Virus record (IMG/VR): IMGVR_UViG_3300045988_163275
Span: 43,752 to 107,751 of that record
Reading direction: 5' to 3' (one strand)
Length of the DNA: 64,000 nt
From: a virus
Lineage: Duplodnaviria > Heunggongvirae > Uroviricota > Caudoviricetes
A program made the translations under genes and the position numbers. A model generated the notes under the pieces. It was not told where the DNA came from and did no database searches. It saw only the letters and a program-made list of their open reading frames with translations. Positions 3,024-32,859 of the stretch are shown here, piece by piece. Positions within the stretch are counted from its first letter, which is position 1. Every line of letters begins with the position of its first letter.

Positions 3024-3599
3024 TTTGGCTCCAGAATCGTGCGCCGCGACGATTTTTGTTTTCTCGCGCGTGTGCGCACGCGTGCGTGTAAATAATAAAA
3101 AATTTTATAAAAGAAAAACTTACTTCCCAGAACAGGTTTTAATAAAACCTGAACTGAACGAACGAAGTGAGTGAAGTTCACCTCGAACGAAGTGAGAGGT
3201 TGTCTTTTCAGGTAATACTCTCCCAGGGAGGTGAGTACAAAATTTCCTCACCAACCTGGTCGTTTCATAACCTGAAAAGTTATGACCTAAGTCTACTGCC
3301 AGCTTAGGCTTGGGAAGTTATGGATGACAGCACCCCAGAACCGAGATCTTCCCACACTTTATGAAGGGGAGTACTGGAATCAACCTCTCGAAACACTCCA
3401 GACTCGACAATCATAAAGTGACCCTTCTCTCTGCTCACTTTGGTTCCCCCTTCCCCAACCCCTAAACGGTGCTGGTTCTACGCTGGTAGTGAGCTTTTTT
3501 AAACCTGACGCCAGTGACGCAATCCCCCACCCATCAGGTCGAGCTGCCGAAAGTATCCGGAAGCGGATAGATTGTATCACTGGTTAGTGGCGCTTTGAA

Positions 3600-3617
3600 T
3601 GGTAAGTACTTACCTAT
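3600..3617. promoter_or_regulatory. class-1 palindromic motif (GGTAAGTACTTACC core)
   Basis: Perfect palindrome in intergenic DNA; member of a family with about 20 copies. Confidence 0.45.
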
Positions 3618-3847
3618 TATATTGATTGATTAATTTCTCGCCCATGCAGCTGGACATTCAGAGCAAACACCTCATTGATCAGCTCACCCAACAACTGCTC
3701 CACCAGTTCTATGTGCTCGCCTGAATGAAGACACTTGAGCGACCATTCGTAGAGACTGAAAGCCTTATCGCGATCTTTCATCATGTCGCGTATCTTGGCC
3801 AGAAAATCGCTCTCAACGAGCGCTACGACGTTCGTCGGGTATATCAT
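3617..3847 (-). CDS. hypothetical small protein
   Basis: 76-aa ORF, no recognizable motif. Confidence 0.3.
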   Translation of the reverse strand: MIYPTNVVALVESDFLAKIRDMMKDRDKAFSLYEWSLKCLHSGEHIELVEQLLGELINEVFALNVQLHGREINQSI

Positions 3848-4049
3848 GATAATTTTCCTTACTGTGGTTCATAAAATCGATTCTAGAGCGTCTGGAGAGG
3901 GACTCCAGTGGGTTCTGGAGGTGTAAAACGGTCTGGGAGTTGTTTGGAAATCACGTCTTAAAAAGCCTGCGTCTGTATATATTAATAATTAGTACTTAGT
4001 TATTTATATATACGGAAGCAGGTTCTCAAACTAACTCCCAGACTGGTGT

Positions 4050-4643
4050 TTACGCTGCCTTTTTACGTGGTCTCTTCTTCCTGACAACATTGGCAGGGTC
4101 ATAACCACCCAGCTTTTTCATCACCGCCAGCGGTATCTTGCTGATGGTGTGCCCAGCTTCCTGACAGTAGCCACGGAAGATAAGCAACATGCTGCCACCA
4201 GGGTTGATGTTCACCTCCACCAGCCCAAGTTCAACATCCGGCTCAACGAACGCCACGCGGCCGCCAGACAAGATGACGGTTTCGTTGGCGCATTCAGCCG
4301 CACGCTCGTACCACTGCGTATCGAGGGATTGTGGTATCAGCATGACCGTCGTCACTCCACGCGCCTGCTCGCGAATGGCTGCGTCTATCCAGGGGGTGAT
4401 TTTGGAGTAGGGCGGGTTAAGGAACGCCACAGTGCCAGGTTCTCCCCAACTGCACTTGAGCGCATCACGCTCAACACCGATAAAGTTCGGCAGGAGAGCA
4501 TTATCTTTGTTGCAGGCGACGTCCACATCGAACTTTACGCCTATGTAACGTTGGATGGCGACAAACAACCACTGCGGTGTGCGCCAAAGGTCGCGAAGAG
4601 AGGCATCACGCTCTCGCTTTTTGATTTTTTCGGCTGCGATCAT
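4050..4643 (-). CDS. phage-type DNA N6-adenine methyltransferase (Dam-like)
   Basis: FLNPPYS catalytic motif and overall phage Dam-like pattern; palindromic motif 12 nt upstream of ATG. Confidence 0.75.
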   Translation of the reverse strand: MIAAEKIKKRERDASLRDLWRTPQWLFVAIQRYIGVKFDVDVACNKDNALLPNFIGVERDALKCSWGEPGTVAFLNPPYSKITPWIDAAIREQARGVTTVMLIPQSLDTQWYERAAECANETVILSGGRVAFVEPDVELGLVEVNINPGGSMLLIFRGYCQEAGHTISKIPLAVMKKLGGYDPANVVRKKRPRKKAA

Positions 4644-4654
4644 TACTTTACTCT

Positions 4655-4676
4655 GATAGGTAAATACTTACCTATT
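4655..4676. promoter_or_regulatory. class-1 palindromic motif ATAGGTAAATACTTACCTAT upstream of Dam-like gene
   Basis: 8-bp inverted arms ATAGGTAA/TTACCTAT, 12 nt upstream of start codon. Confidence 0.45.
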
Positions 4677-4797
4677 TTTTCATTTAATCCAACGGATAGC
4701 AAACAAAGAAGAACGCGCCAGATTCGCAAACGGGAAGCTCTCTGGCGCGTTTTATCGATGCTGGGTAAGCCAATTCATACCCAGCATCCTAAAGCTC

Positions 4798-17195: not shown

Positions 17196-17300
17196 AATGC
17201 CTGTTTACTTATTCACTTTATTCACAGGCCCGATCCAATATTTAGATCCCCAGAGAGATCCTACAGAAGATCAAAAGAGATCCCCGATCGTCTCCAGCGC
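17196..17300. repeat. GATC-rich approx 90-bp direct repeat unit (copy 1), origin-like
   Basis: Segment cacaggcccgatcca...agatccc...aaagagatcccc with 6 GATC sites; second copy at about 17584-17690. Confidence 0.5.
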
Positions 17301-17330
17301 TTGCGGTTACTGGCTTGAGAAGGGGTTACT

Positions 17331-17436
17331 ATCCACTATAGGGAGCAAAATAACCACTGTAGAGAGCATAATAACCGCTATGAAGAGCAAAACAACCTCT
17401 CTGGAGAGTAGTCGGTATCCACTGTAGTGAGTAGGA
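17331..17436. repeat. iteron array (about 5 units of approx 21 bp, core CCACTGTAGnGAG)
   Basis: Tandem units atccactatagggagcaaaata / accactgtagagagcataataa / ... / atccactgtagtgagtaggag. Confidence 0.7.
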
Positions 17437-17583
17437 GACAATGTTTTAACTGGATAACTCCGAGCCTGTTTTTCTGCGGCAGATGGCTGATATTCTTGGA
17501 AATATTGTAAATTTTGCGTTGCGGCGTGTTTATTTCGATCACACATTATCCCCAGAAGGGGAGTGATGCCTGATTTTGTAATT

Positions 17584-17690
17584 ATCTGATTTTTATACAC
17601 AGGCCCGATCCAGTAATTCAGATCCCTGTTAGAACCAAAGAGAACCACAAAGACCCAAAGAGATCCCCGGACCCTGCAAACCGTTGTGCC
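17584..17690. repeat. GATC-containing direct repeat unit (copy 2)
   Basis: Shares cacaggcccgatcca and aaagagatcccc blocks with copy 1. Confidence 0.45.
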
Positions 17691-17713
17691 ACATGGCTTT
17701 AGAGGTTATCGAT

Positions 17714-17840
17714 ATCCACTATAGCGAGAATAACAACCACTATGGAGAGTAAATCAACCACTATGGAGAGTAGAAAAACCGCTGTAGGCGGTAGGATAAC
17801 CACTGTGATGGGTGCTACTATCCACTGTAATCAGTAAAGG
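17714..17840. repeat. iteron array upstream of repA
   Basis: Units atccactatagcgag, accactatggagag (x2), ccgctgtaggcgg, accactgtgatggg, tccactgtaatcag. Confidence 0.7.
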
Positions 17841-17874
17841 CACCCAAGCCGTCGAATAAAAAGAGACATTTGGA

Positions 17875-18930
17875 ATGAGCGTAAACGACAATAAAAACAT
17901 TGCGATAAGCGAAGCATTTTCCGAAACAGACAAAAAGACCGGCGAAGTTGTTACGTTAGTTCCTAACACCAACAACACAGTTCAGCCTGTTGCTCTGATG
18001 CGTCTTGGTCTCTTCGTTCCGACGCTGAAATCGACATCCAGGGGTAGAAAGGGGCAAATGGTCTCTATGGACGCCTCCGCTGAACTCAAACAGCTGTCTC
18101 TGGCCAAAGCCGAAGGGTACGAGGATATAAGGATTGCTGGTCTTCGTCTTGATATGGATAACGATTTCAAAACATGGGTGGGCATCATCCACGCGTTCGC
18201 CAAGCACAAGGTTGTTGGTGACACCGTCACGTTGCCGTTCGTCGAGTTCGTCAGACTTTGTGGCATACCAACAGCCAGATCGTCCGCGAAGTTACGTAAG
18301 CGCCTGGACAGCTCTCTAAGTCGTATCGCCACAAACACCATCTCATTCCGCAGCAAAGGCTCTGAAGAGTATTACGTTACGCACCTTGTGCAGACGGCAA
18401 AGTACAGTACCAAGAATGACACGGTCGAACTGAAGGCCGATCCTAAGATTTTCGAACTTTACCAGTTCGACAAAAAGGTGCTTTTGCAACTTCGGGCCAT
18501 CAACGAACTCTCCAGAAAGGAATCCGCGCAGGCGCTCTACACCTTCATTGAAAGTTTGCCACCAGACCCGGCGCCAATCTCATTGGCTCGCTTACGCGCC
18601 AGACTTAACTTAACCAGCCGCACCATTACCCAGAATGCGACAGTCAGGAAGGCGATGGAGCAACTGCGAGAGATCGGCTATCTCGATTACACTGAAGTGA
18701 AACGCGGCAGCTCGGTCTACTTCGTCATCCACTATAGACGGCCGAAGTTACGTTCGGCACTGCCGCCATCTATGGCCACGCCTGAAGATCCAGAAGATAT
18801 CTTGCCAGGTGATGATCCGGAGGACATTATCGATGTTGCTCCTGAAGAAAAAGACGGGGAAATGGTCATGTTGAGCAAGGAAGAACTGGCGATTCTCGAA
18901 GAGCTGCGCAAGGCAAAGGCTCGCAAATAG
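17875..18930 (+). CDS. repA: replication initiator RepA (P1/RepFIB-like)
   Basis: Blocks [60 protein letters not shown] match my recollection of P1 RepA; flanked on both sides by iterons. Confidence 0.8.
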
Positions 18931-18934
18931 CCCA

Positions 18935-19490
18935 ACCACTGTAGAGAGTAAAAAGGCTCACTATCCACTGTAGTGAGCCTTTTTGTTTATCGGAAATGCA
19001 ATATCCACTGTAGTGAGTAAAAGAAACCGAAGAATAACCACTGTAGGCAGTGCGCACAAATCGCGAAGTAAATGTTAGTGGTTGCAAACATAGATAAAAC
19101 AAGGGCTGAGAGGTTAGCGGTCACTGGGTATCCATGTTAAGTCTACTCTCTACAGCGGTTATCGTCGCTCTCTTCATTGTTGACTATCCACTGTGAAGAG
19201 CAGAATTGGCTGACTTGACCTTTATCCACTGTAGTGAGTGGATATCTGTTTAAAACAGCGAAGATTTACTCTCCATAGTGGATATCCGCTGGAGGAGGCA
19301 TTCCATCACTCTCTATAGTGGTTGTTTGTAGTCAGTGAACGCCTGTTTACTCACTACAGTGGATAGTTGATATCGTGGCAGAGGGTTTGCTCACTACAGT
19401 GGTTGGGGTGCATACCTGAAGGGTGTTCTACTCGCTACAGTGGTTATGAGCCGGATTCACACACGGTGAGCTGGCTACTCACCGCAGTGG
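18935..19490. repeat. downstream iteron field (about 13 units, both orientations)
   Basis: CCACTGTAG(T/A)GAG-type units in direct orientation 18936-19058 and mostly inverted orientation 19148-19490. Confidence 0.7.
18954..18985 (+). terminator. hairpin plus T-run after repA (overlaps an iteron)
   Basis: AGGCTCACTA tccactg TAGTGAGCCT followed by TTTTTG, preceded by AAAAA. Confidence 0.45.
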
Positions 19491-19711
19491 ATAGTGTTAT
19501 CAGTGGATTTTCTTCAGCAGACCCCAGAGTGTCCCGGCCTTCGTTGCGAGCTTACCTGTTTCCGGATCGTACATGTGCCATTCACGTCGCTGGTGGACAA
19601 TATACCCATCTTCACGTTCCAGTCGTTCCAGTACGCCGGACTGCTTGAACCCTTTGGCACGCCAGTAGCCGCTTGTTTTTTCGATTTCCAGACCTGTCAG
19701 TGTAACCGCCA

Positions 19712-20047
19712 TCAACTAATCTCCTTGCAGTCATCGAAAAGGTAGCTGTCGTTCTTCGCGTGAACGCCGTATACATCACCCGATTTGTTGTAAACGAACC
19801 TATCTTTACCTACGCCAGATAGTTCGCCGTTACGTTTAGTGAGAAACGGGGAAGACAGGACGCGATCATCGCGTACCACATAAAACTGTTCGCCGCGGTC
19901 CACAACCATCGCGCCGTAATTAGCTTTAACGACGTTACGGATCAGGCCGTTTTTCGCTTCGACCACAAACATTTCGCACTCATAGACATGTGTGTCCGCA
20001 AAGACGGGGAGAGTGAGCAGCGCCAGTACCAGGGCTGTTTTCTTCAT
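19712..20047 (-). CDS. secreted/periplasmic hypothetical protein
   Basis: N-terminal signal-peptide-like MKKTALVLALLTLPVFA. Confidence 0.5.
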   Translation of the reverse strand: MKKTALVLALLTLPVFADTHVYECEMFVVEAKNGLIRNVVKANYGAMVVDRGEQFYVVRDDRVLSSPFLTKRNGELSGVGKDRFVYNKSGDVYGVHAKNDSYLFDDCKEIS

Positions 20048-21023: not shown

Positions 21024-24000
21024 TTGATGAAAATAATCGATAACCTTAACAACCTATTAGGTGACGAGCTTCAACAGACGCTGACACCGAATACAAAGTT
21101 AAAGATTGCTGCGTCTTGCTTTTCTATTTATGCGTATGAGGCTCTCAAAAAGGAGTTAGCGAAGATAGACTCACTTGAGTTCATCTTCACATCACCTACT
21201 TTTGTCGCAGATGAAGTTACCGATAAATTCAAAAAAGAAAAACGAGAGTTCTTTATTCCCAAAGCAGGGCGTGAACGCAGCCTTTACGGAACTGACTTTG
21301 AAATACAGTTAAAGAACAAGCTCACTCAAAAGGCGATCGCCAAAGAGTGTGCAAACTGGATCAGAAAGAAAGCGACATTCAAATCAAACAAAACTGATTC
21401 TCCAATGCAGTCGTTTGTTGTGACGGAAGCACCTAGACAGCAAACAGAGACAATGAGTGCAGTTTTTGCTCCGGTTAGCGGGTTTACGGCGGTTGATCTA
21501 GGGTATCAGCGAGGAAATGCTATTTCGAATTTTGTGCAAAAAATCGATGAGCCAAATTTCACAGCCCAGTACTTACAGTTATTCGACCAAATTTGGAAAG
21601 ACCCTGCGAAGCTTCAAGATGTTACTAAAACAATTTGCGAGCATATAGAGTCTGTCTACCAGGAAAACTCGCCTGAGAAAGTCTATTTCATTATTTTGTA
21701 TAACATTTTTAATGAGTTCCTTGATGATATTACAGAGGATGTATTACCAAATGATCGAACCGGCTATCAGGACACCTTGATTTGGAACAAGTTATTCAAC
21801 TACCAAAAAGATGCCGCGACTGGGATTATCAATAAGTTAGAGACCTATAACGGCTGCATTCTGGCTGATAGTGTTGGTCTTGGTAAAACATTTACAGCGT
21901 TAGCTGTCATCAAGTATTACGAGCTCAGGAACAAGTCCGTACTTCTACTGTGTCCGAAAAAATTGGCAGATAACTGGCTCAACTTTAATCGAAACTTAAA
22001 GACAAATATTTTTGCTAAAGACCGTTTTAGTTACGATGTTTTGTGTCACACAGATTTGAGTCGAACCTCTGGCGAATCCTTCGGTACTCCGTTGAATAGA
22101 ATAAACTGGGGTAACTATGACTTGGTCGTCATTGATGAGTCGCATAACTTTAGAAATAACGATGCAGTGAAAGATCGAGAAACTCGATATCAGAAACTGA
22201 TGAATAAAGTGATTCGCGCTGGCGTAAAAACCAAGGTGCTGATGCTATCAGCGACACCAGTGAATAACAGATTTACTGACCTGAGAAACCAGCTCGCGTT
22301 AGCTTATGAAGGCGAGTCGAGCAATCTCACAAAGCATCTTAAAACCACAAAAAGCGTAGAACAGATCTTCAACCAAGCACAAGCCGCATTTAACGCTTGG
22401 TCCAAACTCGACCCAGAGACGCGAACAGCTAAAGCCATACTCGATGCCTTAGATTTTGACTTTTTTGAACTGCTTGATAGCGTCACTATCGCTCGCTCAC
22501 GAAAGCACATCACAACTTTCTACGACACAACAGATATTGGCCATTTCCCTGAACGTAACAAGCCAATCTCGTTTCATTGTCCGCTTACTACTCGTTCGGA
22601 TGTAGTAAGCCTGAATGAGATCTTTGAACAGCTTAAGCTACTCAAACTATCTGTTTATGCGCCAGTGAGTTATATCCTCCCGAGTAGATTGAAGAAATAT
22701 GAGGAGATGTATGACACGGAAGTTGAAGGCGGAAAAGGTAAGTTAAAGCAAAGCGACCGTGAAAAAAGTTTGGTTGCATTGATGACAACGAACCTCCTAA
22801 AGCGTCTTGAGAGCTCCGTATACTCGTTCAGAAGCACCTTGCAATCTCTCCATGATAACCATGTTCGTGTTCTAGGTATTATCGACGAATTCTATAAGCG
22901 AGACGGGCAAACCGAAGTGAGCAGTCTCGTTGAAGCGCTAGAGTCTATTGAAGCAGATGAAGACGATATGCCTTCTTATCACGATATGGAAATCGGTAAC
23001 AAAATCAAAATTAAGCTAATGGATATGGATCTTCCATCCTGGCAGCAGGATTTAGATGGCGATTTGGAGCTGATCAAAGGGTTACTAGATTCTGTTAGCA
23101 AAATTAAGCCAGAAGAAGATGCTAAGTTGCAGCATCTGAAATCACATATTGCTGCAAAAATAAATAATCCGATAAATCCTGGAAACCGGAAAATCATCGT
23201 GTTCACGGCGTTTGCTGACACCGCTCAGTATCTGTACGAGCAGTTGTCACCTGTGATGTTAAGCGAGCATAGAATCCATACTGCGATGATCACTGGTGGT
23301 GCCAGTTTACCTAAGACCACCTTAAAAACCGGACGAAAAGGTTACGACACACAAGAAGTGCTCACCTTGTTTTCTCCAGTTTCCAAATCGAAAGCCAGTG
23401 TATTACCTGACGAACCCGCTGAAATCGATTTGTTGATTGCTACAGACTGTATCTCTGAAGGGCAGAACTTACAGGATTGCGATTACTTAATTAACTTTGA
23501 TATTCATTGGAATCCAGTTCGGATTGTTCAGCGCTTTGGGCGTGTTGACCGTATTGGCTCGGCGAATAAATGTATTCAGTTAGTTAACTACTGGCCTGAT
23601 ATATCGCTGGATGAGTACATCAACTTAAAAGAACGTGTTGAAAGTCGAATGACGATTGTTGACGTAACAGCGACCGGTGATGACAACGTTCTAAGTTGTC
23701 AAGCGAATGATGTGTCGTACCGTAAAGAGCAGTTAAAGAAACTACAAGAAGAAGTCATCGAGCTTGAAGATTTAAAAACGGGGGTTTCTATCACCGATCT
23801 AGGTCTAAACGAATTTCGAATGGACCTGCTAAATCTAATGAAACTCTACGGCGAACCAAGAAATGCACCAAGCGGCATGCATGCGGTGGTTGAGGCTAAG
23901 CCAGAATTAGGGTTATTGCCTGGCGTGGTGTTTGCGCTGAAAAACGTTAATAACAGTATCGATAGAGATCTGCAAAACAGGCTCCACCCTTATTACCTTG

Positions 24001-24359
24001 TCTATGTATCGAATGAAGGGGACATCGTCGCTAATCATTTTGAGGTAAAGAGACTATTAGATTTAATCCGAAGTAGCTGTAAAGGTCAAACAGCACCGCT
24101 CAGTGAGATTTGTGCTTTATTTAATCGCTTAACGCAAGACGGTCGAGATATGCAGTGTTACTCTCACCTTCTAACAGATGCCATAAAAAGCATGGTTGAA
24201 GTTAAGGAAGAAAAAGATATTGATAGTTTGTTCAATGGTGGCGCTACCTCAGCTTTAGTGAATACATTTGCCGGGCTTGATGACTTTGAATTGCTGGCAT
24301 TTATTGTGATCCAGCAAAAGCAGCTGATGGAAAACAGTGCCCAGGATGAGGTTAGCTAA
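21024..24359 (+). CDS. SNF2-family helicase (1111 aa) with about 280-aa N-terminal domain of unknown function
   Basis: Motif I ADSVGLGKTF, motif II VVIDESHNFRN, motif III LMLSATPVNN, motif V/VI region DCDYLINFDIHWNPVRIVQRFGRVDRIGS. Confidence 0.85.
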   Translation: MMKIIDNLNNLLGDELQQTLTPNTKLKIAASCFSIYAYEALKKELAKIDSLEFIFTSPTFVADEVTDKFKKEKREFFIPKAGRERSLYGTDFEIQLKNKLTQKAIAKECANWIRKKATFKSNKTDSPMQSFVVTEAPRQQTETMSAVFAPVSGFTAVDLGYQRGNAISNFVQKIDEPNFTAQYLQLFDQIWKDPAKLQDVTKTICEHIESVYQENSPEKVYFIILYNIFNEFLDDITEDVLPNDRTGYQDTLIWNKLFNYQKDAATGIINKLETYNGCILADSVGLGKTFTALAVIKYYELRNKSVLLLCPKKLADNWLNFNRNLKTNIFAKDRFSYDVLCHTDLSRTSGESFGTPLNRINWGNYDLVVIDESHNFRNNDAVKDRETRYQKLMNKVIRAGVKTKVLMLSATPVNNRFTDLRNQLALAYEGESSNLTKHLKTTKSVEQIFNQAQAAFNAWSKLDPETRTAKAILDALDFDFFELLDSVTIARSRKHITTFYDTTDIGHFPERNKPISFHCPLTTRSDVVSLNEIFEQLKLLKLSVYAPVSYILPSRLKKYEEMYDTEVEGGKGKLKQSDREKSLVALMTTNLLKRLESSVYSFRSTLQSLHDNHVRVLGIIDEFYKRDGQTEVSSLVEALESIEADEDDMPSYHDMEIGNKIKIKLMDMDLPSWQQDLDGDLELIKGLLDSVSKIKPEEDAKLQHLKSHIAAKINNPINPGNRKIIVFTAFADTAQYLYEQLSPVMLSEHRIHTAMITGGASLPKTTLKTGRKGYDTQEVLTLFSPVSKSKASVLPDEPAEIDLLIATDCISEGQNLQDCDYLINFDIHWNPVRIVQRFGRVDRIGSANKCIQLVNYWPDISLDEYINLKERVESRMTIVDVTATGDDNVLSCQANDVSYRKEQLKKLQEEVIELEDLKTGVSITDLGLNEFRMDLLNLMKLYGEPRNAPSGMHAVVEAKPELGLLPGVVFALKNVNNSIDRDLQNRLHPYYLVYVSNEGDIVANHFEVKRLLDLIRSSCKGQTAPLSEICALFNRLTQDGRDMQCYSHLLTDAIKSMVEVKEEKDIDSLFNGGATSALVNTFAGLDDFELLAFIVIQQKQLMENSAQDEVS

Positions 24360-24362
24360 TCT

Positions 24363-25049
24363 ATGTACTCACCTTGGATATTTCCTGACAAAGCAAAGTT
24401 CGGTCGAGTCGTGCCGAAGAACAAAATATACGAACACAGCGCGGCAAGCGCTGGATTGAAGTCACTTTTTGTAGAGCAAGTAGAGCAAATCCTTTGGGCT
24501 TACAAGCTATCGCCTAGCACGCTGAATATTCCTCAAACCAGTGAGGTCAGTGAAATACAGGTTTTCAGTGTGAAGCTTAAAGGTGACTCGATAGACGACA
24601 GCGTACTAAAAGCCATTGATTTGGCGATACCTTTTCCCATTCTATTTGAGGTATGGGAAGCTCGCGGTGAGCAAGGCCACTACGTTGCTTGCTATAAGCG
24701 TAAGGCAGAAAATGATCAGTCAAAATGGTTTTGTAGCCGCTATTTACGCTCAGAAACCTTCTATTCAAGTGATTCATTAGCAGTGACTTCAGAAGTTTTG
24801 GGGTTGCCTACCGCCATCGATATGGCGGAGCTGTATCAAAAGCTTCTTACTCGCTTGTTACCCATACCCCAACGAGCCGCTGAGAGTATTGAAGAGGTCA
24901 TTGAACGCTTGATGGCAATTCAGGCATTGGAAAAGCAAATCTCGCAATATAAGAAGAAGGTTCATGCCGAGAAACAGTTTAACCGCAAGGTTGAGCTCAA
25001 TAAGCAGTTAAAGAATTTAAGGTGCGAGCTTCAAGAGTTACTCGCATAA
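24363..25049 (+). CDS. hypothetical protein, translationally coupled to the SNF2 helicase gene
   Basis: 228-aa ORF starting 4 bp after helicase stop; C-terminal coiled-coil-like region; no motif I can name. Confidence 0.55.
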   Translation: MYSPWIFPDKAKFGRVVPKNKIYEHSAASAGLKSLFVEQVEQILWAYKLSPSTLNIPQTSEVSEIQVFSVKLKGDSIDDSVLKAIDLAIPFPILFEVWEARGEQGHYVACYKRKAENDQSKWFCSRYLRSETFYSSDSLAVTSEVLGLPTAIDMAELYQKLLTRLLPIPQRAAESIEEVIERLMAIQALEKQISQYKKKVHAEKQFNRKVELNKQLKNLRCELQELLA

Positions 25050-25122
25050 AGAATAAACAATTTCAATCAGTTAAATAGTGCCACATGCTTTTTATGCAAG
25101 GCATCACGCAAAAGGTGAACAC

Positions 25123-27045
25123 ATGGACAAATTAAAGATGCACAGCCCCGACATGACGCAGCAAAACATAGAGAAAATTCAGGCGTTGTTTCCGAACTGC
25201 GTGACGGAATCAAGAGGAGCTAACGGAGAGCTAAAGTTAGTCATTGATTTTGACCAACTTAAACAAGAGCTATCAAATTCAATCGTTGAAGGCCCGCAAG
25301 AGCGCTATCAGCTGAACTGGCCCGGTAAGCGAGAAGCACTACTAACAGCGAACGCACCTATTGCAAAAACATTAAGACCTTGTCGAGAAGAAAGTGTTAA
25401 TTTTGATACCACAGAAAACCTCTTTATTGAAGGTGATAACCTTGATGCGCTAAAAATGTTGCAAGAAACCTATTTGGGCAAGGTTAAGGTGATTTATATA
25501 GATCCGCCCTATAATACGGGTAAGGATTTTATATACGAAGACGATTTTGCTGAAAATTCTGATGGGTTTTTGAAGCGGTCAAATCAAAAGGATGAAGAAG
25601 GCAATCGCCTTGTAGCCAATACCGATTCCAACGGTCGCTTTCACTCAGACTGGTTGAGCATGATATTTTCGAGACTTAAACTTGCACGCAATATACTAAG
25701 TAGTGATGGAATTATCTTTATTAGTATAGATGAAAACGAGCTTGATAACCTCTTGAAAATAGGAAAGGAAATATTTGGTGAAGAGAACCACATAACTACG
25801 TTTTGTTGGGAAAAAAAGAAGAAACCATCTTTTCTTAATAAAAATGTAGGTTCGAAATTCGAGTATATTGTCACCTTTTCAAAGAATCGTGATTACACAG
25901 GTGCATTTTCCATTGATCTTACAACTGAAGGTAAAAAGTACCCCCTGAATAATGCAGGGAACTCACTCGGAAACCTTGTTTTTCCAGCAGGTTCGGTACG
26001 ATTCAACTTGCCAGACCAGATTATAGAACCGCAAGATATGTCTGAGGGTAAAATAAAAACCAGGTTAATTAATAGGTTGGAAATAATTGGAGGTAAAAAC
26101 GTTAATGAATTTATCCTTGAGGGTGAATGGAGATATTCTCAGAATAGATTAAATGAAATTCTAGAAAATCGAGAAGAAATTATAATCAGCAAAGTTCCGT
26201 TTAGGCCAAATCATGTAAAAGCAGGAGGTGAGATAAAAAAAATGCACAACCTCCTAAGTGTCGCTCATTATAAAGTTTCAACTAATGAGGATGCGGATGC
26301 CGAAAGTTCAGAGTTGATGGGGAATAAATACTTTGATTACACCAAGCCTTCAAATTTAATCAAACTATTAATCCAAGCAATAACTTATGACGATCAAGAA
26401 TGTCTAGTATTAGATTTTTTTGCGGGTTCATCAACAACCGCCCATGCCGTGATGCAACTTAATGCAGAAGATGGCGGAAATCGAAAATTTATCATGGTTC
26501 AGTTGCCTGAAGAGTGTGATAAAAAATCAGAAGCCTTCAAAGCTGGCTACAAAACAATTGCTGAGATATCAAAAGAACGCATCCGCCGTGCTGGTGCAAA
26601 AATATTAGAAGGGGAGTGCCACAAAGACTGGAATAAAGACGTTGGTTTCCGAGTGCTTAAAGTTGATACATCCAATATGGCCGATGTCTACTACTCGCCA
26701 GAGCAGGTTTCTCAGGGTTCGTTAGACTTATTGGTAGATAATATTAAATCAGACCGCACTGATGAAGATTTACTTTTCCAGGTTCTACTTGATTGGGGCG
26801 TCGATTTAACCTTGCCAATTAGAAAAGAAACGATTCAAGGTAAATCGGTATTCTTTGTCGATGATGATGCACTGGTGGCCTGTTTTGATCTGCGCATAAA
26901 TGAAGCTTTGATTAAAGAGTTAGCCATAAAAGAACCTCTTCGCGTAGTGTTCCGTGATGACGGCTTTGAATCTGATGCAGTAAAAATCAATGCTGAGCAG
27001 ATTTTCAAGCAAGTGTCGCCATATACTGAAGTTAAAGCGATTTAA
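25123..27045 (+). CDS. N6-adenine DNA methyltransferase, beta-class (Type III Mod-like)
   Basis: Catalytic motif [12 protein letters not shown] near N-terminus and AdoMet motif [14 protein letters not shown] near C-terminus (IV before I order); start at ATG 25123 with AAAGGTGA RBS. Confidence 0.85.
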
Positions 27046-27140
27046 GGGGGGAGCATGACAAATTTTACCGGATTAAAATTTGCACACAGCCTTGTCGCAG
27101 ACAAGGTGTGCCCAAAGGGTTGCGTACAGGGAGGTGCGCA

Positions 27141-30100
27141 ATGAAACTTAAATTCAAAGTCCAGCCTTATCAAACTGTTGCCGTAGAGTCGGTTGTTGAC
27201 TGCTTTGCGGGGCAACCTAATACCTCCGGTATAACCTACCGAATCGATCCTGGCATTGCCAAAGATAAATTTGGCAATGCTGGCTGGGATATGAGTGACC
27301 AGGATGGGTTTAAAAATGCTGAACTTGCGATCACTGAATCGCAGTTATTGCAAAATATCCATGGTGTTCAAAGTAGACAGAACCTCCCTGTTTCAGAAGC
27401 GTTAGCCAGCAATGCTAGCTCTAAGATTAATCTCGATGTTGAAATGGAAACCGGTACAGGTAAGACATATTGCTACATCAAAACTATCTTTGAGATGAAT
27501 AAACGCTATGGCTGGAGCAAATTTATTATCGTAGTGCCTAGCATTGCCATTCGTGAAGGTGTTTACAAGTCGCTACAAATCACAGGTGAGCATTTTGCCC
27601 AGAATTACAACGGTAAAAAGGCACGGTTTTTCATCTATAACTCAAAACAATTGCACCAGTTAGAGAGTTTTTCTTCTGACAGTGGCATCAATGTCATGAT
27701 CATTAATATTCAAGCCTTTAATGCATCAGGAAAAGACAATCGACGTATTTATGAAGAGTTGGATGACTTCCAGTCTAGGCGTCCTATTGATGTTATTAGT
27801 GCAAACCGTCCAATCCTGATTTTGGATGAGCCGCAGAAGATGGAAGGTAAGAAGACATTAGATGCCTTAGCCAAATTCAAACCACTGATGGTACTTCGAT
27901 ATTCGGCCACGCATAAGACAACACATAATAAGGTGCATCGTCTGGATGCTCTTGACGCTTATAACAATAAGCTGGTTAAGAAAATTGCAGTTCGTGGTAT
28001 CTCAGTAAAGGGTTTAGCGGGCACTACAGCCTATCTATATCTGGAATCCATCGAAATCTCAAAAAAAATGCCAGTGGCTCGTATAGAGATCGAGGTTAAA
28101 CAACAAAATGGCATCAAACGCATACCCAAGAAGGTCACTAAGGGCGATAATCTTTTTGATCTTAGTAATGGTTTGGACCAGTACCGTGATTTTGTGGTTA
28201 CTGATGTCAACGCGATTAACGACACAGTTGAATTCAAAAATGGCCATGTTTTAACCGCGGGCGATGCCACGGGAGACGTGACCGAAGAGACCATTCGCCG
28301 CATACAGATTCGCGAGACAATTAAAGCACACCTTGAAAAAGAAAAAATACTTTTTAACCAGGGTATAAAGGTTCTCTCTCTCTTTTTTATTGACGAAGTC
28401 GCAAAGTATAGGGACTACTCTCAAGCCGATGAAAAAGGTGATTATGCTCGCGTTTTTGAAGAAGAGTATTCCTTGCTTGTACAGGAGTATCTTGATGAGT
28501 TGTCCCTTTTGCCAAGTGAGCAGACTGATGCCTATAAAGCCTATCTATCGGCCATTGAAGGCTCTAGAACGCATAATGGTTACTTCTCAATTGATAAGAA
28601 ATCAAATCGTCTTCAGAACCCCGGCTTTAAAGTCCGTGGTGAAGATGCCGGGCTATCAGACGATGTAGATGCCTATGATTTGATTTTAAAAGATAAGGAA
28701 AAGTTACTTTCGTTTGAAGAGCCTACTCGATTTATCTTTTCACACTCGGCCTTGCGCGAGGGGTGGGATAATCCAAACGTATTTGTCATGTGTATGTTGA
28801 AACACAGCGACAATACTATCTCTCGTCGTCAAGAAGTTGGACGTGGTTTACGTCTGGCCGTCAATAAACATGGTGACAGACAAGATCATCCGGCAACTGT
28901 GCATGAAATTAATGTCTTGTCGGTGATTGCAAGTGAAAGCTATAAAGACTTTGTCACGAATCTGCAAAAAGAGATCAGCGAGTCTCTCTCAGCGAGACCT
29001 AGAAAAGCAGATGAAGCTTATTTTACGGGTAAGACAATTACAACAGCTGATGGACCTGTAGAAGTAACACCTGTCATGGCTAAGCAAATTTATAAGTATT
29101 TGCTTAAAAATGATTATACCAATGACGTTGACGATTCAATTGCGCCATCATTCCACCAGGCTAAGGCTAGTGGGCAGTTAGCGCCAATGCCTGCTGAGTT
29201 AGAGCCTTACCGCGAGCAAATATTGACCCTGATTGACGGTGTTTATAGTGAAGCGCAATTGCCAGGTGTTGGTGATGATCGTAAACCTAAAAACAATCCG
29301 TTGAATGCTAATTTTGATAAGAAAGAGTTTCAGGAGCTTTGGCACAAAATCAATCGCAAAGCGGTTTATAAGGTTGATTTTGATTCGTCTGAGTTGATTA
29401 AAAATTGTATTCGGGTACTCAATAAAGAGCTTAAGGTAACGCCTCTTCAGTACACGATTCAAGATGGTGTTCAATTGGATGGCATTACCGACGAACAACT
29501 CAAAGCTGGACAAAGTTTCAAGGTGAAAAACACTGAGACTGAAACTCATCAATCGAGCATTCATTCTGCTGTTCGTTATGACTTGGTTGGTAAGTTGGCT
29601 GAAAATTGTGTGCTGACTCGCAAAACAGTCGCCGAAATACTGATGGGTATAGAACCTGTAGTATTTGCACAATTTAAGCAGAACCCTGAGCATTTTCTCG
29701 CTGAGGCTTCACGCCTTGTGAAAGAGCAAAAGGCATCTGTGATCATCGAGAAGCTATCATATGATCCAACGAACGAATCTTATGATGTTGATATATTCAC
29801 GGCAGAGCAAAAAATCACTGATATGACAAAAGCCGTTAGTGGCGTTAATAAGCATATTTATGATTATGTTGTCGTTGATTCACAAGGCATTGAACGGGAC
29901 TTTGTTACCGAGCTTGATACAAGCAAAGAAGTCGTGGTTTATGCAAAACTGCCTCGTGGTTTTCTGATACCGACGCCTGTTGGCGACTACAACCCTGATT
30001 GGGCGATTTCTTTCAAAGAAGGAAGTGTTAAACACATTTACTTTATTGCAGAGACTAAAGGAACGATGTCTTCGCTTGAATTGCGTGGCATAGAAGATCG

Positions 30101-30218
30101 CAAGATTGAATGTGCTAGGAAATTCTTTGAAAAAATTAATGCAGAGATAACGAGTGAAAACGTCAAATATGATGTTGTAACGAGTTACTCGAAATTAATG
30201 GAAGTCATAAGCGGTTAG
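27141..30218 (+). CDS. Type III restriction Res-like helicase-nuclease
   Basis: Helicase motif [10 protein letters not shown], motif [11 protein letters not shown], motif [12 protein letters not shown]; C-terminal PD-ExK-like GDYNPDW...IAETKG; start at ATG 27141 with GGGAGGTG RBS. Confidence 0.85.
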
Positions 30219-30519: not shown

Positions 30520-32859
30520 TTAATCTTCTAATTCATCTGTCGGTGATGTCTTCTCGCGCCTGTCATCTATTGCCTGTAACGCAGCAATGATTTCAGCTAA
30601 TGGCTTCTCCCGGTACATCTCGACGATCTGTGATTTGGTGTATTTCTTCTCGCCAATTTCCACACGCCCGCTGGCGCTCTTGGGCAGGTATCCTTCCTCC
30701 AGCATGTATTCAACCAGAGACTCGACGACGTCCAGCCCGCGAGTCGGGTCGAAGTAGAATTTCCATGAGCATTTGCCAAACGGAGGCGCGACTTTGTTTT
30801 TAATGCACTCGGCGCCAACGTCCTGTCCGATCTTCTCTTTGCCATCCTTCATGACGGATGCACCCAGACGGATGCGCACCGACGCGTAGAACTTCGGAGA
30901 GTCGCCACCCGGAGACGTAGTCGGATCGCCAAACATCACACCAATTTTGGTACGCACCTGGTTCAAGAAGATGATGCACGCGTTGTACTTACGCGCCCAA
31001 AGCGCCAGAGTAGGGAAGTTCGCACTTGTCGCGCGCGCCAGCGCCGTGTTGTCGTTCATGTTCAGCTGATCTTTGTCCTTCGCAGTGCCTTCTGCCATCT
31101 TGTCGAACTTCTCAGCCTTCGAGTTCGGAACCATCGACGCCAGAGAGTCGGCTACGATGCAGATAGGGGCTGTTTCCGGAATAAGCTCTTCGTCGCGCAC
31201 CAGCTTGAGGATTGTGCCGATCAGCTCTACGGAGTCTTCGAAGGTATCCGGCTGTTTGTAGACCCACTGACCGTCGTCTTCGTCGGCGTTCAGTCCGTTC
31301 GCTACCGCCAGACCAACGTCGAAACTGTTTTCGTGGTCAAGGAATACGGCCAGACCATCCTGTTTTTGTGCTGACACCATCGCAGCTGTCGCGAGGAATG
31401 TGTTGTGGCTGATAATCCCGTTAGACCAGAAAGAGTGTGTTTCCGGCATCGCTACGTCGAACGTTGGTGCTTCACCTTCCTCAATAGCCACGACTTCGTC
31501 GTAGAACAAGTTAGAGTCAATTACCGCTGCCAGTTGTGCAAACAGATGCTCGTTAAAACGATTCTTTCTGCTAATGAAGGAGACATAGATTTCTCGCAGT
31601 TTGTCTATTCCGACACGATCGCCGCGGCCAATAACGTGATCTACCAGAACGTAGTCTTTACGAGAGGTCTTGGTGAGTGACTCGTAGAGTGATTTCACTA
31701 AGCCGCTGATGTGCGGAACGTAGCCTAAATAAGTGCGGTCAAAACTAATGTCCCGTTTGGTTGCCACTGCTAAACGAGCCGGAGACTCGAACCCAATCGT
31801 TGACAGGAAAAGGTCGTAGTTAGAGCCACTGAATGACAGCCGGTAATATATGTTTTTATAACCTGCGACGTGTTTTTCAGAGATAGTTGACGTAATCCCC
31901 AGATTCAGGAGCATGAGGCGAATTTGCTGTAGCAGCAGCCCACTCGCGCTCACAACCTCAATGCAGCGACCATCATTGATGTGGCATTCCAGCTCAAAGT
32001 AGCCGCGAAGGAATGCAATTTGAGCCTCGCTATTGGCGCGACGCACACTCAACGGAACCTGCTTGCCAGCAGCTTTCTCATACTCCAGACCATATTCTTT
32101 AAAAAGCAGCGAACGCACCTCTTTGCTAAACAGCACATGGTCTTCCGAGCCGTTATGTTTTCTCGTAACTGGCATCTTGTCTGATACCAGCGAAATGAGG
32201 CGGTAGTACTCATCCTTGATGAATGGATCTGTGTTAGAAAAATGCACAGAATTTTCAGAGGCCACGTATCCGTCAGCAATTAAATAGCCCATCAGTTTTG
32301 CGATATTGGCATCCAAGTGCTGATCGCCGAATTGATGTGTGCCAACCATTGAAGGAATCGTGTCGCCTACACTGATTTTTTCAGCATACCGCCAGACGAT
32401 ATTGCCTAAGTCGTCAACCACACGAATTGGGTGACGGAACGTAGCCTCGATGTAACCCCCTGATGCCAGCTTAATGCGCTTGAATTTGCGACGGTTGTTC
32501 CATGTCAGGTGTGAGGTCTTCTCTATCACGCCATTTTCATTGATGAGTCCAACGTTATGCTCTACATCGCGAGTAGTGCATGTTGCTTTGTGCCCCTCAA
32601 TCTCAAACAGTTCTTTCACTGTTACCATTCCACGCTCCGTCAGCAGCATGGTGTCTGCGGTAACACATTTCCCCGCGCTTGGTGGCCCGAAGACTTCAAC
32701 GATACGCCCACACGGAAAACCACCGTCGTAACGTCCGGAAATGGCTTTGTTCAGTGGAGGGAAACCGGAGTCAATCCAGTGGGAGACCTTCTGAATCTCG
32801 TCATTGCTGCCGATTTTCTTTTTCAGCGCCAGTGCCAGTGCGGATTTGCCTTTTGCCAT
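30520..32859 (-). CDS. RecA/UvsX-like recombinase interrupted by an intein
   Basis: N-extein ends GRIVEVFGPPSAGK; C-extein resumes TFLATAAM... and contains IIFLNQVR; 422-aa insert begins with Cys and ends HN. Confidence 0.8.
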   Translation of the reverse strand: MAKGKSALALALKKKIGSNDEIQKVSHWIDSGFPPLNKAISGRYDGGFPCGRIVEVFGPPSAGKCVTADTMLLTERGMVTVKELFEIEGHKATCTTRDVEHNVGLINENGVIEKTSHLTWNNRRKFKRIKLASGGYIEATFRHPIRVVDDLGNIVWRYAEKISVGDTIPSMVGTHQFGDQHLDANIAKLMGYLIADGYVASENSVHFSNTDPFIKDEYYRLISLVSDKMPVTRKHNGSEDHVLFSKEVRSLLFKEYGLEYEKAAGKQVPLSVRRANSEAQIAFLRGYFELECHINDGRCIEVVSASGLLLQQIRLMLLNLGITSTISEKHVAGYKNIYYRLSFSGSNYDLFLSTIGFESPARLAVATKRDISFDRTYLGYVPHISGLVKSLYESLTKTSRKDYVLVDHVIGRGDRVGIDKLREIYVSFISRKNRFNEHLFAQLAAVIDSNLFYDEVVAIEEGEAPTFDVAMPETHSFWSNGIISHNTFLATAAMVSAQKQDGLAVFLDHENSFDVGLAVANGLNADEDDGQWVYKQPDTFEDSVELIGTILKLVRDEELIPETAPICIVADSLASMVPNSKAEKFDKMAEGTAKDKDQLNMNDNTALARATSANFPTLALWARKYNACIIFLNQVRTKIGVMFGDPTTSPGGDSPKFYASVRIRLGASVMKDGKEKIGQDVGAECIKNKVAPPFGKCSWKFYFDPTRGLDVVESLVEYMLEEGYLPKSASGRVEIGEKKYTKSQIVEMYREKPLAEIIAALQAIDDRREKTSPTDELED
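31402..32667 (-). mobile_element. intein with LAGLIDADG homing endonuclease domain inside the Walker A motif
   Basis: Insert CVTADTML...GIISHN followed by Thr +1; two LAGLIDADG-like blocks LMGYLIADGYV and IAFLRGYFELECH; excision gives GPPSAGKT. Confidence 0.7.

Follow-up and report, generated by a model that had tools for sequence, protein, structure and literature searches.

A RepFIB/P1-family replicon with two tandem origin-like modules, probably maintaining a phage-plasmid of the SSU5/pHCM2/pMT1 type

The replicon of phage P1 (AF234172) is annotated in the order DnaA boxes, five Dam sites, five iterons at 21-bp phase containing the promoter PrepA, repA and nine incA iterons. The latter start at the repA stop, with three '+' units followed by '-' units. 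Membership of the strict P1 type (IncY) has been defined by a RepA at least about 72-73% identical to that of P1 and by near-identical 19-bp iterons (PMC10999674). In RepFIB replicons, the iterons downstream of rep suffice for displacement of the replicon, and those upstream are linked to the origin (PMC11983097). Published typing places the SSU5 supergroup in IncFIB (PMC7969092; bioRxiv 10.1101/2025.09.12.675607). As to plasmid pMT1, a Y. pestis methylome paper found its GATC sites nearly all methylated; the origin was absent from the four under-methylated loci of that study and was not discussed in it.

In this study, a 64-kb stretch of DNA (hereafter the window) was analysed, of which the segment at 17.2-19.5 kb is read as the replicon that maintains an E. 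coli phage-plasmid of the SSU5/pHCM2/pMT1 type as a plasmid prophage. A probability of roughly 0.85 is given to this reading taken as a whole, with the division of roles between two upstream modules proposed below. Its assignment to the iteron-controlled theta replicons of the RepFIB/P1 family is nearly certain. Both family and logic are textbook, and a tandem second origin module is the sole unusual feature. The features of the locus are as follows.

17209..17226, + strand: distal DnaA boxes, TTATTCACT (8/9) then TTATTCACA (9/9 to TTATNCACA), found by regular-expression scan
17232..17289, no strand: distal GATC (Dam) cluster, six GATC spaced by 13/12/12/10/7 bp within AGATCCn heptamers, homologous to the P1 Dam sites
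17330..17433, + strand: distal iteron array, five direct units at 21-bp phase, putative origin iterons
17434..17586, no strand: inter-module spacer, the least conserved segment
17593..17601, + strand: proximal DnaA box TTATACACA, 9/9 to TTATNCACA
17607..17672, no strand: proximal heptamer cluster, GATC kept at 17607, 17621 and 17662
17713..17836, + strand: proximal iteron array, six direct units at 21/22-bp phase, putative repA operator
17813..17821, + strand: putative repA promoter, extended -10 (TGcTACTAT) lying between the fifth and sixth proximal iterons, predicted transcription start near 17828
17875..18930, + strand: repA, 351-aa Rep_3-family initiator (Pfam)
18726..18742, + strand: iteron-like site within the repA coding sequence (CATCCACTATAGACGGC), 16.0 bits
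18933..19494, both strands: downstream iteron field, 13 units in the order ++++-++------
18949..18991, + strand: hairpin followed by a U-run, likely repA terminator (RNA fold)

RepA matched Pfam PF01051 Rep3_N (44.6 bits against a cut-off of 22.4, E 2.4e-11, residues 115-225), and PF21205 Rep3_C at 20.7 bits, just below its 21.1-bit cut-off (E 4.9e-4). By tblastn, residues 40-293 were 47.5% identical to P1/P7 RepA (E 3e-71). Together, the Rep3_N and P1/P7 matches confirm the RepA homology on which the earlier note had staked its identification of a P1-like replicon. Identity reached 94-95% with SSU5 and pMT1, 75% with Erwinia E602, 65% over 307 aa with the F-plasmid RepFIB initiator and 47% with P1. 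Near-identical plasmids annotate the gene as 'replication protein RepA'. A PDB sequence search returned no solved structure matching RepA, and NCBIfam was likewise negative for the RepA proteins of the window, P1 and Erwinia.

The replicon is already known, since it was 99.5-99.8% identical at the DNA level to E. coli plasmids (99.5% to pGS04EC-1, which is typed IncFIB and non-mobilizable, and 99.8% to NZ_CP100974) and about 90% identical to SSU5 and pMT1. Of 5426 complete E. coli genomes, 130 contained matches, which were plasmid-borne every time; plasmids at least 99% identical to the replicon were typed IncFIB by MOB-suite. Phage SSU5 aligned over 100% of the query at 89.6% identity, and its neighbouring genes (SbcCD-like genes, a 214-aa ORF, repA and a cra-like gene) match those of the window. 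SSU5, S. Typhi pHCM2 and Y. pestis pMT1 carry the same replicon (89.6-90% DNA identity over 2.5 kb), sharing the double upstream module, the ++++-++--- downstream pattern and the flanking genes, and displaying allelic differences only. Host genera of the element were Escherichia, Salmonella, Enterobacter, Yersinia and Citrobacter. The window also encodes phage-type replication genes (Pol III alpha, a DnaB-like helicase, gp32, a RecA-like protein and a ligase), which is consistent with a separate plasmid-mode replicon. The replicon of a 2026 preprint on phage-plasmid copy-number heteroresistance was set aside as irrelevant to that of the window, being of CopA/IncFII type.

With a position weight matrix derived from the repeats, 24 iterons flanking repA were called (five distal, six proximal and 13 downstream), essentially where the earlier note had placed about 23. 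Their consensus, the derivation of which was a check proposed in that note, is TAWCCACTGTAGnGAGTA. Called units scored 11.8-27.4 bits, and the maximum elsewhere in the 64 kb was 12.1 bits. With up to three mismatches, TAWCCACTRTAGNGAGT matched 21 times in the window, every time inside 17330-19493; shuffled sequence contained 0.94 +/- 0.98 matches and attained 21 in 0/100 shuffles. A chance origin of the repeats is excluded. Their 3' half, CTGTAGTnAGTA, is common to the window replicon and RepFIB. Each array matches the iteron consensus of its lineage, so that both upstream arrays probably bind RepA.

Upstream of repA lie two complete origin-like modules in tandem rather than one incC. The two units aligned over about 240 bp (17198-17432 with 17571-17815; about 71% identity, 383-bp period), and a DnaA box and GATC sites precede each iteron array. 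Two repeat copies, each followed by an array, had been seen in the earlier note at essentially these positions; the description of both as GATC-rich holds for the distal copy, with its six GATC, but not for the proximal one, which has only three. The position of the distal DnaA boxes corresponds to that of the annotated pair at the left end of oriR in P1. With six GATC in 58 bp, the distal cluster is the densest of the window (Poisson expectation of 0.018 such windows). Across five enteric lineages its GATC columns were invariant (24/24) as against 24/40 neighbouring columns (Fisher p=1.8e-4). By analogy, it would be the site of origin opening and SeqA sequestration. The distal iterons start at 17330, 17351, 17372, 17393 and 17416 (spacing 21/21/21/23 bp), and the proximal ones at 17713, 17734, 17755, 17776, 17797 and 17819 (spacing 21/21/21/21/22 bp). 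In the proximal cluster, the three central heptamers have decayed to GAACC, GAACC and GACCC and the last site reads CGGACC; Tandem Repeats Finder reported a period of 10 x 3.3 at 17631-17663. The central heptamers are likewise lost in the Erwinia E602 plasmid. Judging from their alignment, the GATC columns of both modules are under purifying selection.

Within the proximal array, all aligned lineages of the clade but Xenorhabdus (10 of 11) carry the motif TGnTAnnAT, which aligned with the annotated -10 of P1 PrepA; this conserved -10 is confined to the proximal array. The putative repA promoter at 17813..17821 was drawn from this cross-lineage alignment as a conserved motif only, and a consensus promoter scan called no promoter in the proximal array. 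The spacer between the modules was 61% identical to E. coli DFL.5 and 36% to Erwinia, as compared with 75-94% and 61-75%, respectively, for the DnaA-box, GATC-cluster and iteron segments. It had no Rfam match, and the only Rfam hit obtained was a sub-threshold chance match (RF02844, 28.7 bits vs 49). A minus-strand promoter called in the spacer by the consensus scan (17532-17504) was dropped because SSU5 and pMT1 do not conserve its -10. The spacer was also considered as a leftover of the 5' end of repA and rejected as such, local alignment showing that similarity between the modules stops after the fifth iteron.

The downstream field begins 2 nt past the repA stop, and its units are mostly 38-47 bp apart. 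Both orientations, as described in the earlier note, are represented: six units lie on the + strand (18933, 18962, 19002, 19035, 19185 and 19223) and seven on the - strand (19145, 19268, 19308, 19349, 19389, 19430 and 19477). The field is analogous to the nine P1 incA iterons and to RepFIB iterons E-K (PMC11983097), and by this analogy it would be an incA-like locus of copy control and incompatibility. Unit number is polymorphic: the window has 13, SSU5 and pMT1 have 13-15, and E. coli plasmids with at least 99% identity have 13-18, such as 13 in pGS04EC-1, 14 in pA320_p0 and 18 in pE16EC1016-4. The likely repA terminator consists of a hairpin with a 16-bp stem (minimum free energy -24.6 kcal/mol, z = -4.24, equalled in 0/200 shuffles), whose loop and 3' arm hold the iteron 18962-18978. 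A consensus terminator scan missed it because of its loop limit of 8 nt.

The P1 oriR/incC-repA-incA layout proposed in the earlier note was borne out part by part against AF234172, except that the origin module occurs twice here. P1 and the window share two DnaA boxes, GATC heptamers, a GC-rich spacer, five iterons with PrepA, repA and a mixed-orientation field. Since P1 incA also mixes orientations, the downstream arrangement is itself P1-like; moreover, each is the lysogenic replicon of a phage-plasmid. P1 nevertheless differs by its single module, by nine instead of 13 control iterons, by parAB following incA (not so in the window) and by its iteron, GATGTGTGCTGGAGGGAAA, which that note had rightly described as different. 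At 47-47.5% RepA identity and with another iteron consensus, the locus falls outside the strict IncY type.

On sequence grounds, the closest prototype is RepFIB/IncFIB rather than P1/IncY. As in RepFIB (F/P307/pO157; RepA 65% identical), rep lies between upstream origin iterons with a DnaA site and downstream control iterons, the latter in both orientations; RepFIB also displays five GATC and five iterons upstream. The DnaA/GATC segment of the window resembles that of F RepFIB (GGCCCGATCCAGTAAATAGATCC), and that of three relatives (L005, L007 and L010) resembles P1's (TTATCCACTGGATAGATCCA). F RepFIB is distinguished by one origin module, fewer downstream iterons and another iteron 5' half (ATAAGCTGTAGTCAGTA, which has only its 3' half in common with the window consensus), so that incompatibility specificity probably differs. 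Large plasmids of Erwinia, Pantoea and Rahnella (e.g. Erwinia sp. E602, 326 kb; RepA 68-77% identical) share the iteron consensus, the tandem double module and large mixed-orientation downstream fields. Yet these replicons reside on megaplasmids, not phage-plasmids, parAB adjoins them and up to about 20 downstream iterons are present. Enteric and Erwinia distal modules were 73% identical and cross comparisons gave 65-66%, module orthology between the two being weakly resolved.

The two-module layout was surveyed in 80 species-level loci encoding RepA relatives (81 with the window). Arrays were called by weight-matrix chaining; a periodicity-based detector was dropped as it under-called degenerate arrays, finding none in F RepFIB. 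The layout was recorded in 37/81 loci (36/80 besides the window), where a GATC cluster and four or more iterons are retained in each module, and a DnaA box in most proximal copies. A further 14 loci combined a full distal module (at least five GATC and at least four iterons) with a proximal array having 0-2 GATC or only 2-3 iterons. The distal module was unrecognisable in a single locus of the 81 (L057), and the proximal GATC count never exceeded the distal one in any surveyed locus. A single origin module was found in P1, F RepFIB, the Klebsiella pKpn type and one Pantoea clade. In the literature covered, the double-module architecture was neither described nor dissected for SSU5, pHCM2 and pMT1; the original pMT1/pHCM2 papers, which were beyond this coverage, may already have noted it.

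By homology with P1 and RepFIB, RepA monomers would bind the 21-bp-phased origin iterons and host DnaA the flanking boxes. The GATC-heptamer region would then open, its Dam sites making initiation methylation-dependent and exposing the origin to SeqA sequestration after firing. RepA would repress its own promoter between the last two iterons before repA, and the 13 near-consensus downstream iterons would titrate RepA and handcuff the origin, leading to low copy number and incompatibility. The two tandem copies of the origin module (DnaA box, GATC heptamers, GC-rich spacer and five iterons) may divide the work. The distal copy (17209-17433) would be the working oriR, and the proximal one (17593-17836) would serve chiefly as promoter-operator of repA and as a handcuffing partner in cis, with vestigial origin sequence. 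This assignment, suggested by the 36 two-module loci and the 14 with a decayed proximal copy, is somewhat favoured on comparative evidence. More tentatively, the tandem modules may be a conserved functional refinement of the RepFIB/P1 design, in which an ancestral oriR was duplicated and its roles divided, and no recent accident. The distal copy would then be the Dam/DnaA-dependent origin, and the DnaA box and GATC of the proximal promoter-operator could tie repA expression or cis handcuffing to methylation; alternatively, the proximal copy could be a second, less Dam-dependent origin.

Other explanations were weighed against this division of roles. In P1, the Klebsiella pKpn type and the Pantoea clade, the working origin lies directly upstream of repA, to which the proximal copy is thus orthologous by position. 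Among enteric lineages, no element is better conserved than its DnaA box (the surrounding 16-bp segment is 94-100% identical to the window in four others), and its three GATC are invariant in 6/6 aligned lineages. These points would suit an active proximal origin, with the distal copy as an extra incompatibility/copy-control locus or spare. Such an arrangement is unlikely in view of the 14 lineages where the proximal GATC cluster, DnaA box or most iterons were lost and a full distal module persisted (14/14). GATC heptamers are critical to P1 origin function, and the central proximal heptamers lack Dam sites, with proximal GATC counts nowhere above distal ones. Position and the conservation of the proximal DnaA box and GATC do count against the role split, and the proximal module may still fire.

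Slightly less probable still is that both modules are alternative working origins, for instance one strongly and the other weakly Dam/SeqA-dependent, providing a wider host range or buffered initiation. The retention of both modules in the 37/81 lineages, the purifying selection on both sets of GATC columns and the five host genera are in its favour, but the repeated, one-sided proximal decay in 14 lineages argues that the proximal copy is dispensable as an origin. That the repeats are sites of another protein (e.g. a partition centromere) or chance or structural repeats, rather than RepA iterons, is highly improbable. The divergent parAB beside the repeats of the Erwinia plasmid would fit a centromere, yet among the larger window ORFs scanned with Pfam 0/20 were par proteins. 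The 18-bp unit lies on both sides of repA with P1-like phasing, accompanies RepA relatives across dozens of lineages and has the 3' half of known RepFIB iterons, and shuffling excludes chance.

The replicon maintains widespread enterobacterial phage-plasmids, including S. Typhi pHCM2, the Y. pestis virulence plasmid pMT1 and resistance-gene-carrying E. coli elements. Modest as a discovery, the map of origin, operator and copy control serves plasmid typing, incompatibility-based curing (for which RepFIB is a precedent) and the reading of copy-number variation. The conserved double module and the polymorphic number of downstream iterons offer a natural handle on iteron replicon evolution and copy-number setting. 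Finally, the iteron-like site within repA (18726..18742) outscored every site outside the replicon and was found in all relatives, though its sequence is coding.

Iterons flank the repA ORF (351 aa, 17875-18930, +): a repeat finder reported 12 close copies of a 17-nt family, as well as several inverted-repeat pairs linking the regions upstream and downstream of the ORF. A weight matrix built from these copies delimited 5 and 6 units upstream and 13 downstream, and the three arrays claimed around repA in an earlier note thus proved real.

Features of the replicon (iteron arrays as called by the weight matrix)
17209-17226, distal DnaA boxes, TTATTCACT and TTATTCACA
17330-17432, distal iteron array, 5 units spaced by 21/21/21/23 bp
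17713-17835, proximal iteron array, 6 units spaced by 21/21/21/21/22 bp
18933-19494, downstream iteron field, 13 units (6 on the + strand, 7 on the - strand, order ++++-++------)

The downstream field begins 2 nt past the repA stop codon. Aligning the units, a step suggested in the same note, yielded for all 24 the consensus TAWCCACTGTAGnGAGTA, and scanning the 64-kb window with the matrix revealed no site above 12.1 bits outside the replicon. Likewise, the degenerate pattern TAWCCACTRTAGNGAGT (up to 3 mismatches) displayed 21 matches, all within 17330-19493, where shuffling predicted 0.94 +/- 0.98 and none of 100 shuffles reached 21. The downstream iterons were the closest to consensus (20.8-27.6 bits) and the upstream arrays included weak units (11-15 bits), a comparison that is partly circular since the matrix came largely from strong units. 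An iteron-like site inside repA (18726-18742, 16.0 bits) was conserved in all relatives examined; this sequence being coding, coding and binding-site constraints are not separable there.

Judging from its sequence, the repA product is a Rep_3-family initiator: Pfam Rep3_N scored 44.6 bits (cut-off 22.4) and Rep3_C 20.7 bits, just below its cut-off. Homology to RepA was confirmed by 47-47.5% identity to the P1/P7 proteins (E 3e-71); identity rose to 65% with the F-plasmid RepFIB initiator and to 75% with that of a 326-kb Erwinia plasmid. In the P1 record AF234172, a DnaA site of two boxes is followed by five Dam sites, incC (five iterons in 21-bp phase; PrepA lies between the final ones), repA and incA (nine iterons from the last base of repA onward, three '+' and then '-' ones). 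Each part has its match in the window (two boxes, six GATC, GC-rich spacer, five iterons, repA and downstream field), which supports the P1-like layout put forward in the earlier note. The downstream units in both orientations, also pointed out there, are a feature shared with P1, since incA is itself mixed. Yet RepFIB/IncFIB is a nearer prototype than P1/IncY. RepFIB of F has a single DnaA box, five GATC and five iterons on the upstream side, and its downstream iterons likewise point both ways; the 3' half of its iteron, ATAAGCTGTAGTCAGTA, is common to the window iteron, and the DnaA/GATC segment retains recognisable DNA-level homology among window, F and P1. The replicon can thus be assigned to the RepFIB/P1 family. 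IncY members have RepA proteins about 72-73% identical and near-identical iterons (PMC10999674), so that, with its 47-47.5% RepA identity, the window replicon is to be classed outside P1 (IncY) when incompatibility is defined strictly.

The replicon itself is a known one with many database entries. Identity of its 2.5-kb region reached 99.5% with E. coli plasmid pGS04EC-1 and 99.8% with NZ_CP100974, and of 5426 complete E. coli genomes, 130 carried it, plasmid-borne every time. The many plasmids of the pGS04EC-1 type (about 106-120 kb) are non-mobilizable, typed IncFIB, and have the ORF annotated as 'replication protein RepA'. Salmonella phage SSU5 displayed 89.6% identity over the full replicon length, with the same neighbouring genes, and Y. 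pestis pMT1 and Salmonella and Enterobacter plasmids about 90%. Elsewhere, the window carries phage-type replication and recombination genes, among them those for Pol III alpha, a DnaB-like helicase, gp32, a 5'-3' exonuclease, a ligase and a RecA-like protein with an intein, as well as SbcCD-like ones. From these matches and this gene set, the window is part of a phage-plasmid of the SSU5 supergroup, which is known to be typed IncFIB (PMC7969092; bioRxiv 10.1101/2025.09.12.675607).

The replicon has one non-canonical feature, a conserved tandem origin module, which is also its sole part that could repay experiments. Each module comprises DnaA box, GATC heptamers, GC-rich spacer and iterons, and the two are separated by a poorly conserved spacer of 154 bp. 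The upstream units (about 17198-17432 and 17571-17815) aligned at about 71% identity with a period of 383 bp. The repeat of about 90 bp described previously before each array is real, but fully GATC-rich in the first copy only: the distal unit carries 6 GATC in 58 bp, the densest cluster of the window (Poisson expectation 0.018 such windows), in AGATCCn heptamers spaced by 13/12/12/10/7 bp, whereas the proximal unit retained just 3, its remaining heptamers being GAACC or GACCC. Among aligned lineages, GATC columns were more often invariant than others, both in the distal (24/24 versus 24/40, p=1.8e-4) and in the proximal module (12/12 versus 24/58, p=1.7e-4). The inter-module spacer also contains a DnaA-box-like site (8/9), TTATCCCCA, at 17546-17554, which precedes the proximal DnaA box by about 40 bp; at the aligned position, a diverged E. 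coli lineage displays ATATCCACA.

The double module is not private to the window. It was also found in SSU5, pMT1, phage Cyrano, this E. coli lineage (77% identity), E. ludwigii and the Erwinia megaplasmid, whereas P1, F RepFIB, one Pantoea plasmid clade and a Klebsiella pKpn-type phage-plasmid have a single one. The latter (L006; K. quasipneumoniae pM72-2-2, 3064-4680), although it belongs to the SSU5 supergroup, has another, more P1-like replicon: identity to P1 oriR is 74% over its DnaA/GATC/iteron region, and its 5 upstream and 9 downstream iterons are of their own type, ATATGCTGTCAGCGGT, all in direct orientation. Its repA ORF looks split in the record, possibly through an assembly error. 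Large non-phage Erwinia/Pantoea plasmids (loci L011, L036, L039, L042, L058 and L075-L087) share the iteron consensus of the window, with very large downstream fields whose units (up to about 16-20) mostly share one orientation; in the 326-kb plasmid of Erwinia sp. E602 (L011, 2010-5060), divergent parAB adjoins the origin.

A survey took in 80 species-level genomic loci with genes for RepA relatives (61-94% identity), 81 with the window. Both modules occurred in 37 of the 81, from genera including Kluyvera, Buttiauxella, Yersinia, Rahnella, Erwinia, Pantoea and Cedecea. In another 14, the distal module was complete (5 GATC or more and 4 iterons or more, mostly with a DnaA box) and the proximal array reduced (0-2 GATC or just 2-3 iterons), and a single locus was without recognisable distal module. 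Other upstream iterons, outside the scoring range of this matrix, were present in 25; four stayed unclassified, two because their upstream sequence was too short and two because they fitted none of these patterns. The proximal GATC count never exceeded the distal one. An extended -10 (TGnTAnnAT), which aligns with the annotated -10 of P1 PrepA, lay between the last two proximal iterons in 10 of 11 aligned clade lineages, and the lineage alignment displayed no equivalent in the distal array.

This pattern across lineages speaks for a division of labour, to which we give a probability of roughly 0.55: the distal module would act as oriR and the proximal one as promoter-operator, perhaps also as handcuffing partner in cis. 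The proximal copy occupies the position equivalent to the P1 origin and might for that reason be the origin itself, which we consider unlikely; that both modules fire seems somewhat less probable still. Judging by homology, RepA on the origin iterons and DnaA at the adjacent boxes would open the GATC-heptamer region, re-initiation would be gated by Dam methylation and SeqA, and repA would be repressed by RepA on the iterons bracketing its promoter. The downstream field, like P1 incA or RepFIB iterons E-K, would set copy number and incompatibility through RepA titration and origin handcuffing; in RepFIB, the downstream block by itself suffices for replicon displacement (PMC11983097).

In E. coli plasmids of 99% identity or more (L001, L092, L093), strong downstream iterons numbered 13 in pGS04EC-1, as in the window, 14 in pA320_p0 and 18 in pE16EC1016-4. 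Whole 40-41-bp units were gained or lost in the '-' sub-array only, a polymorphism that, under the incA model, should alter copy number. A hairpin with a 16-bp stem followed by a U-run (18949-18991, z = -4.2 by RNA folding) is probably the repA terminator. An iteron (18962-18978) is embedded in its loop and 3' arm, so that RepA binding and termination or readthrough could interact there.

A Pfam scan of the 20 larger ORFs of the window found no par protein, in contrast to P1 and the Erwinia plasmid. A 71-aa ORF (19500-19715, -) ends directly after the last iteron; it had no match in Pfam or NCBIfam. The SSU5 annotation names its homologue 'Cre-associated protein', that of phage Cyrano 'P1 Cra protein'. 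About 1.5 kb past the replicon end lies a four-gene defence or restriction-modification-like island (21024-30218, +) whose products are an SNF2/ResIII helicase of 1111 aa, a DUF4391 protein, an N6/N4 DNA methylase and a 1036-aa ResIII helicase bearing an RE_endonuc domain at its C-terminus. It is followed by the RecA-like recombinase gene (30520-32859, -), whose RecA domain is split by an intein containing Intein_splicing and LAGLIDADG_3 domains.
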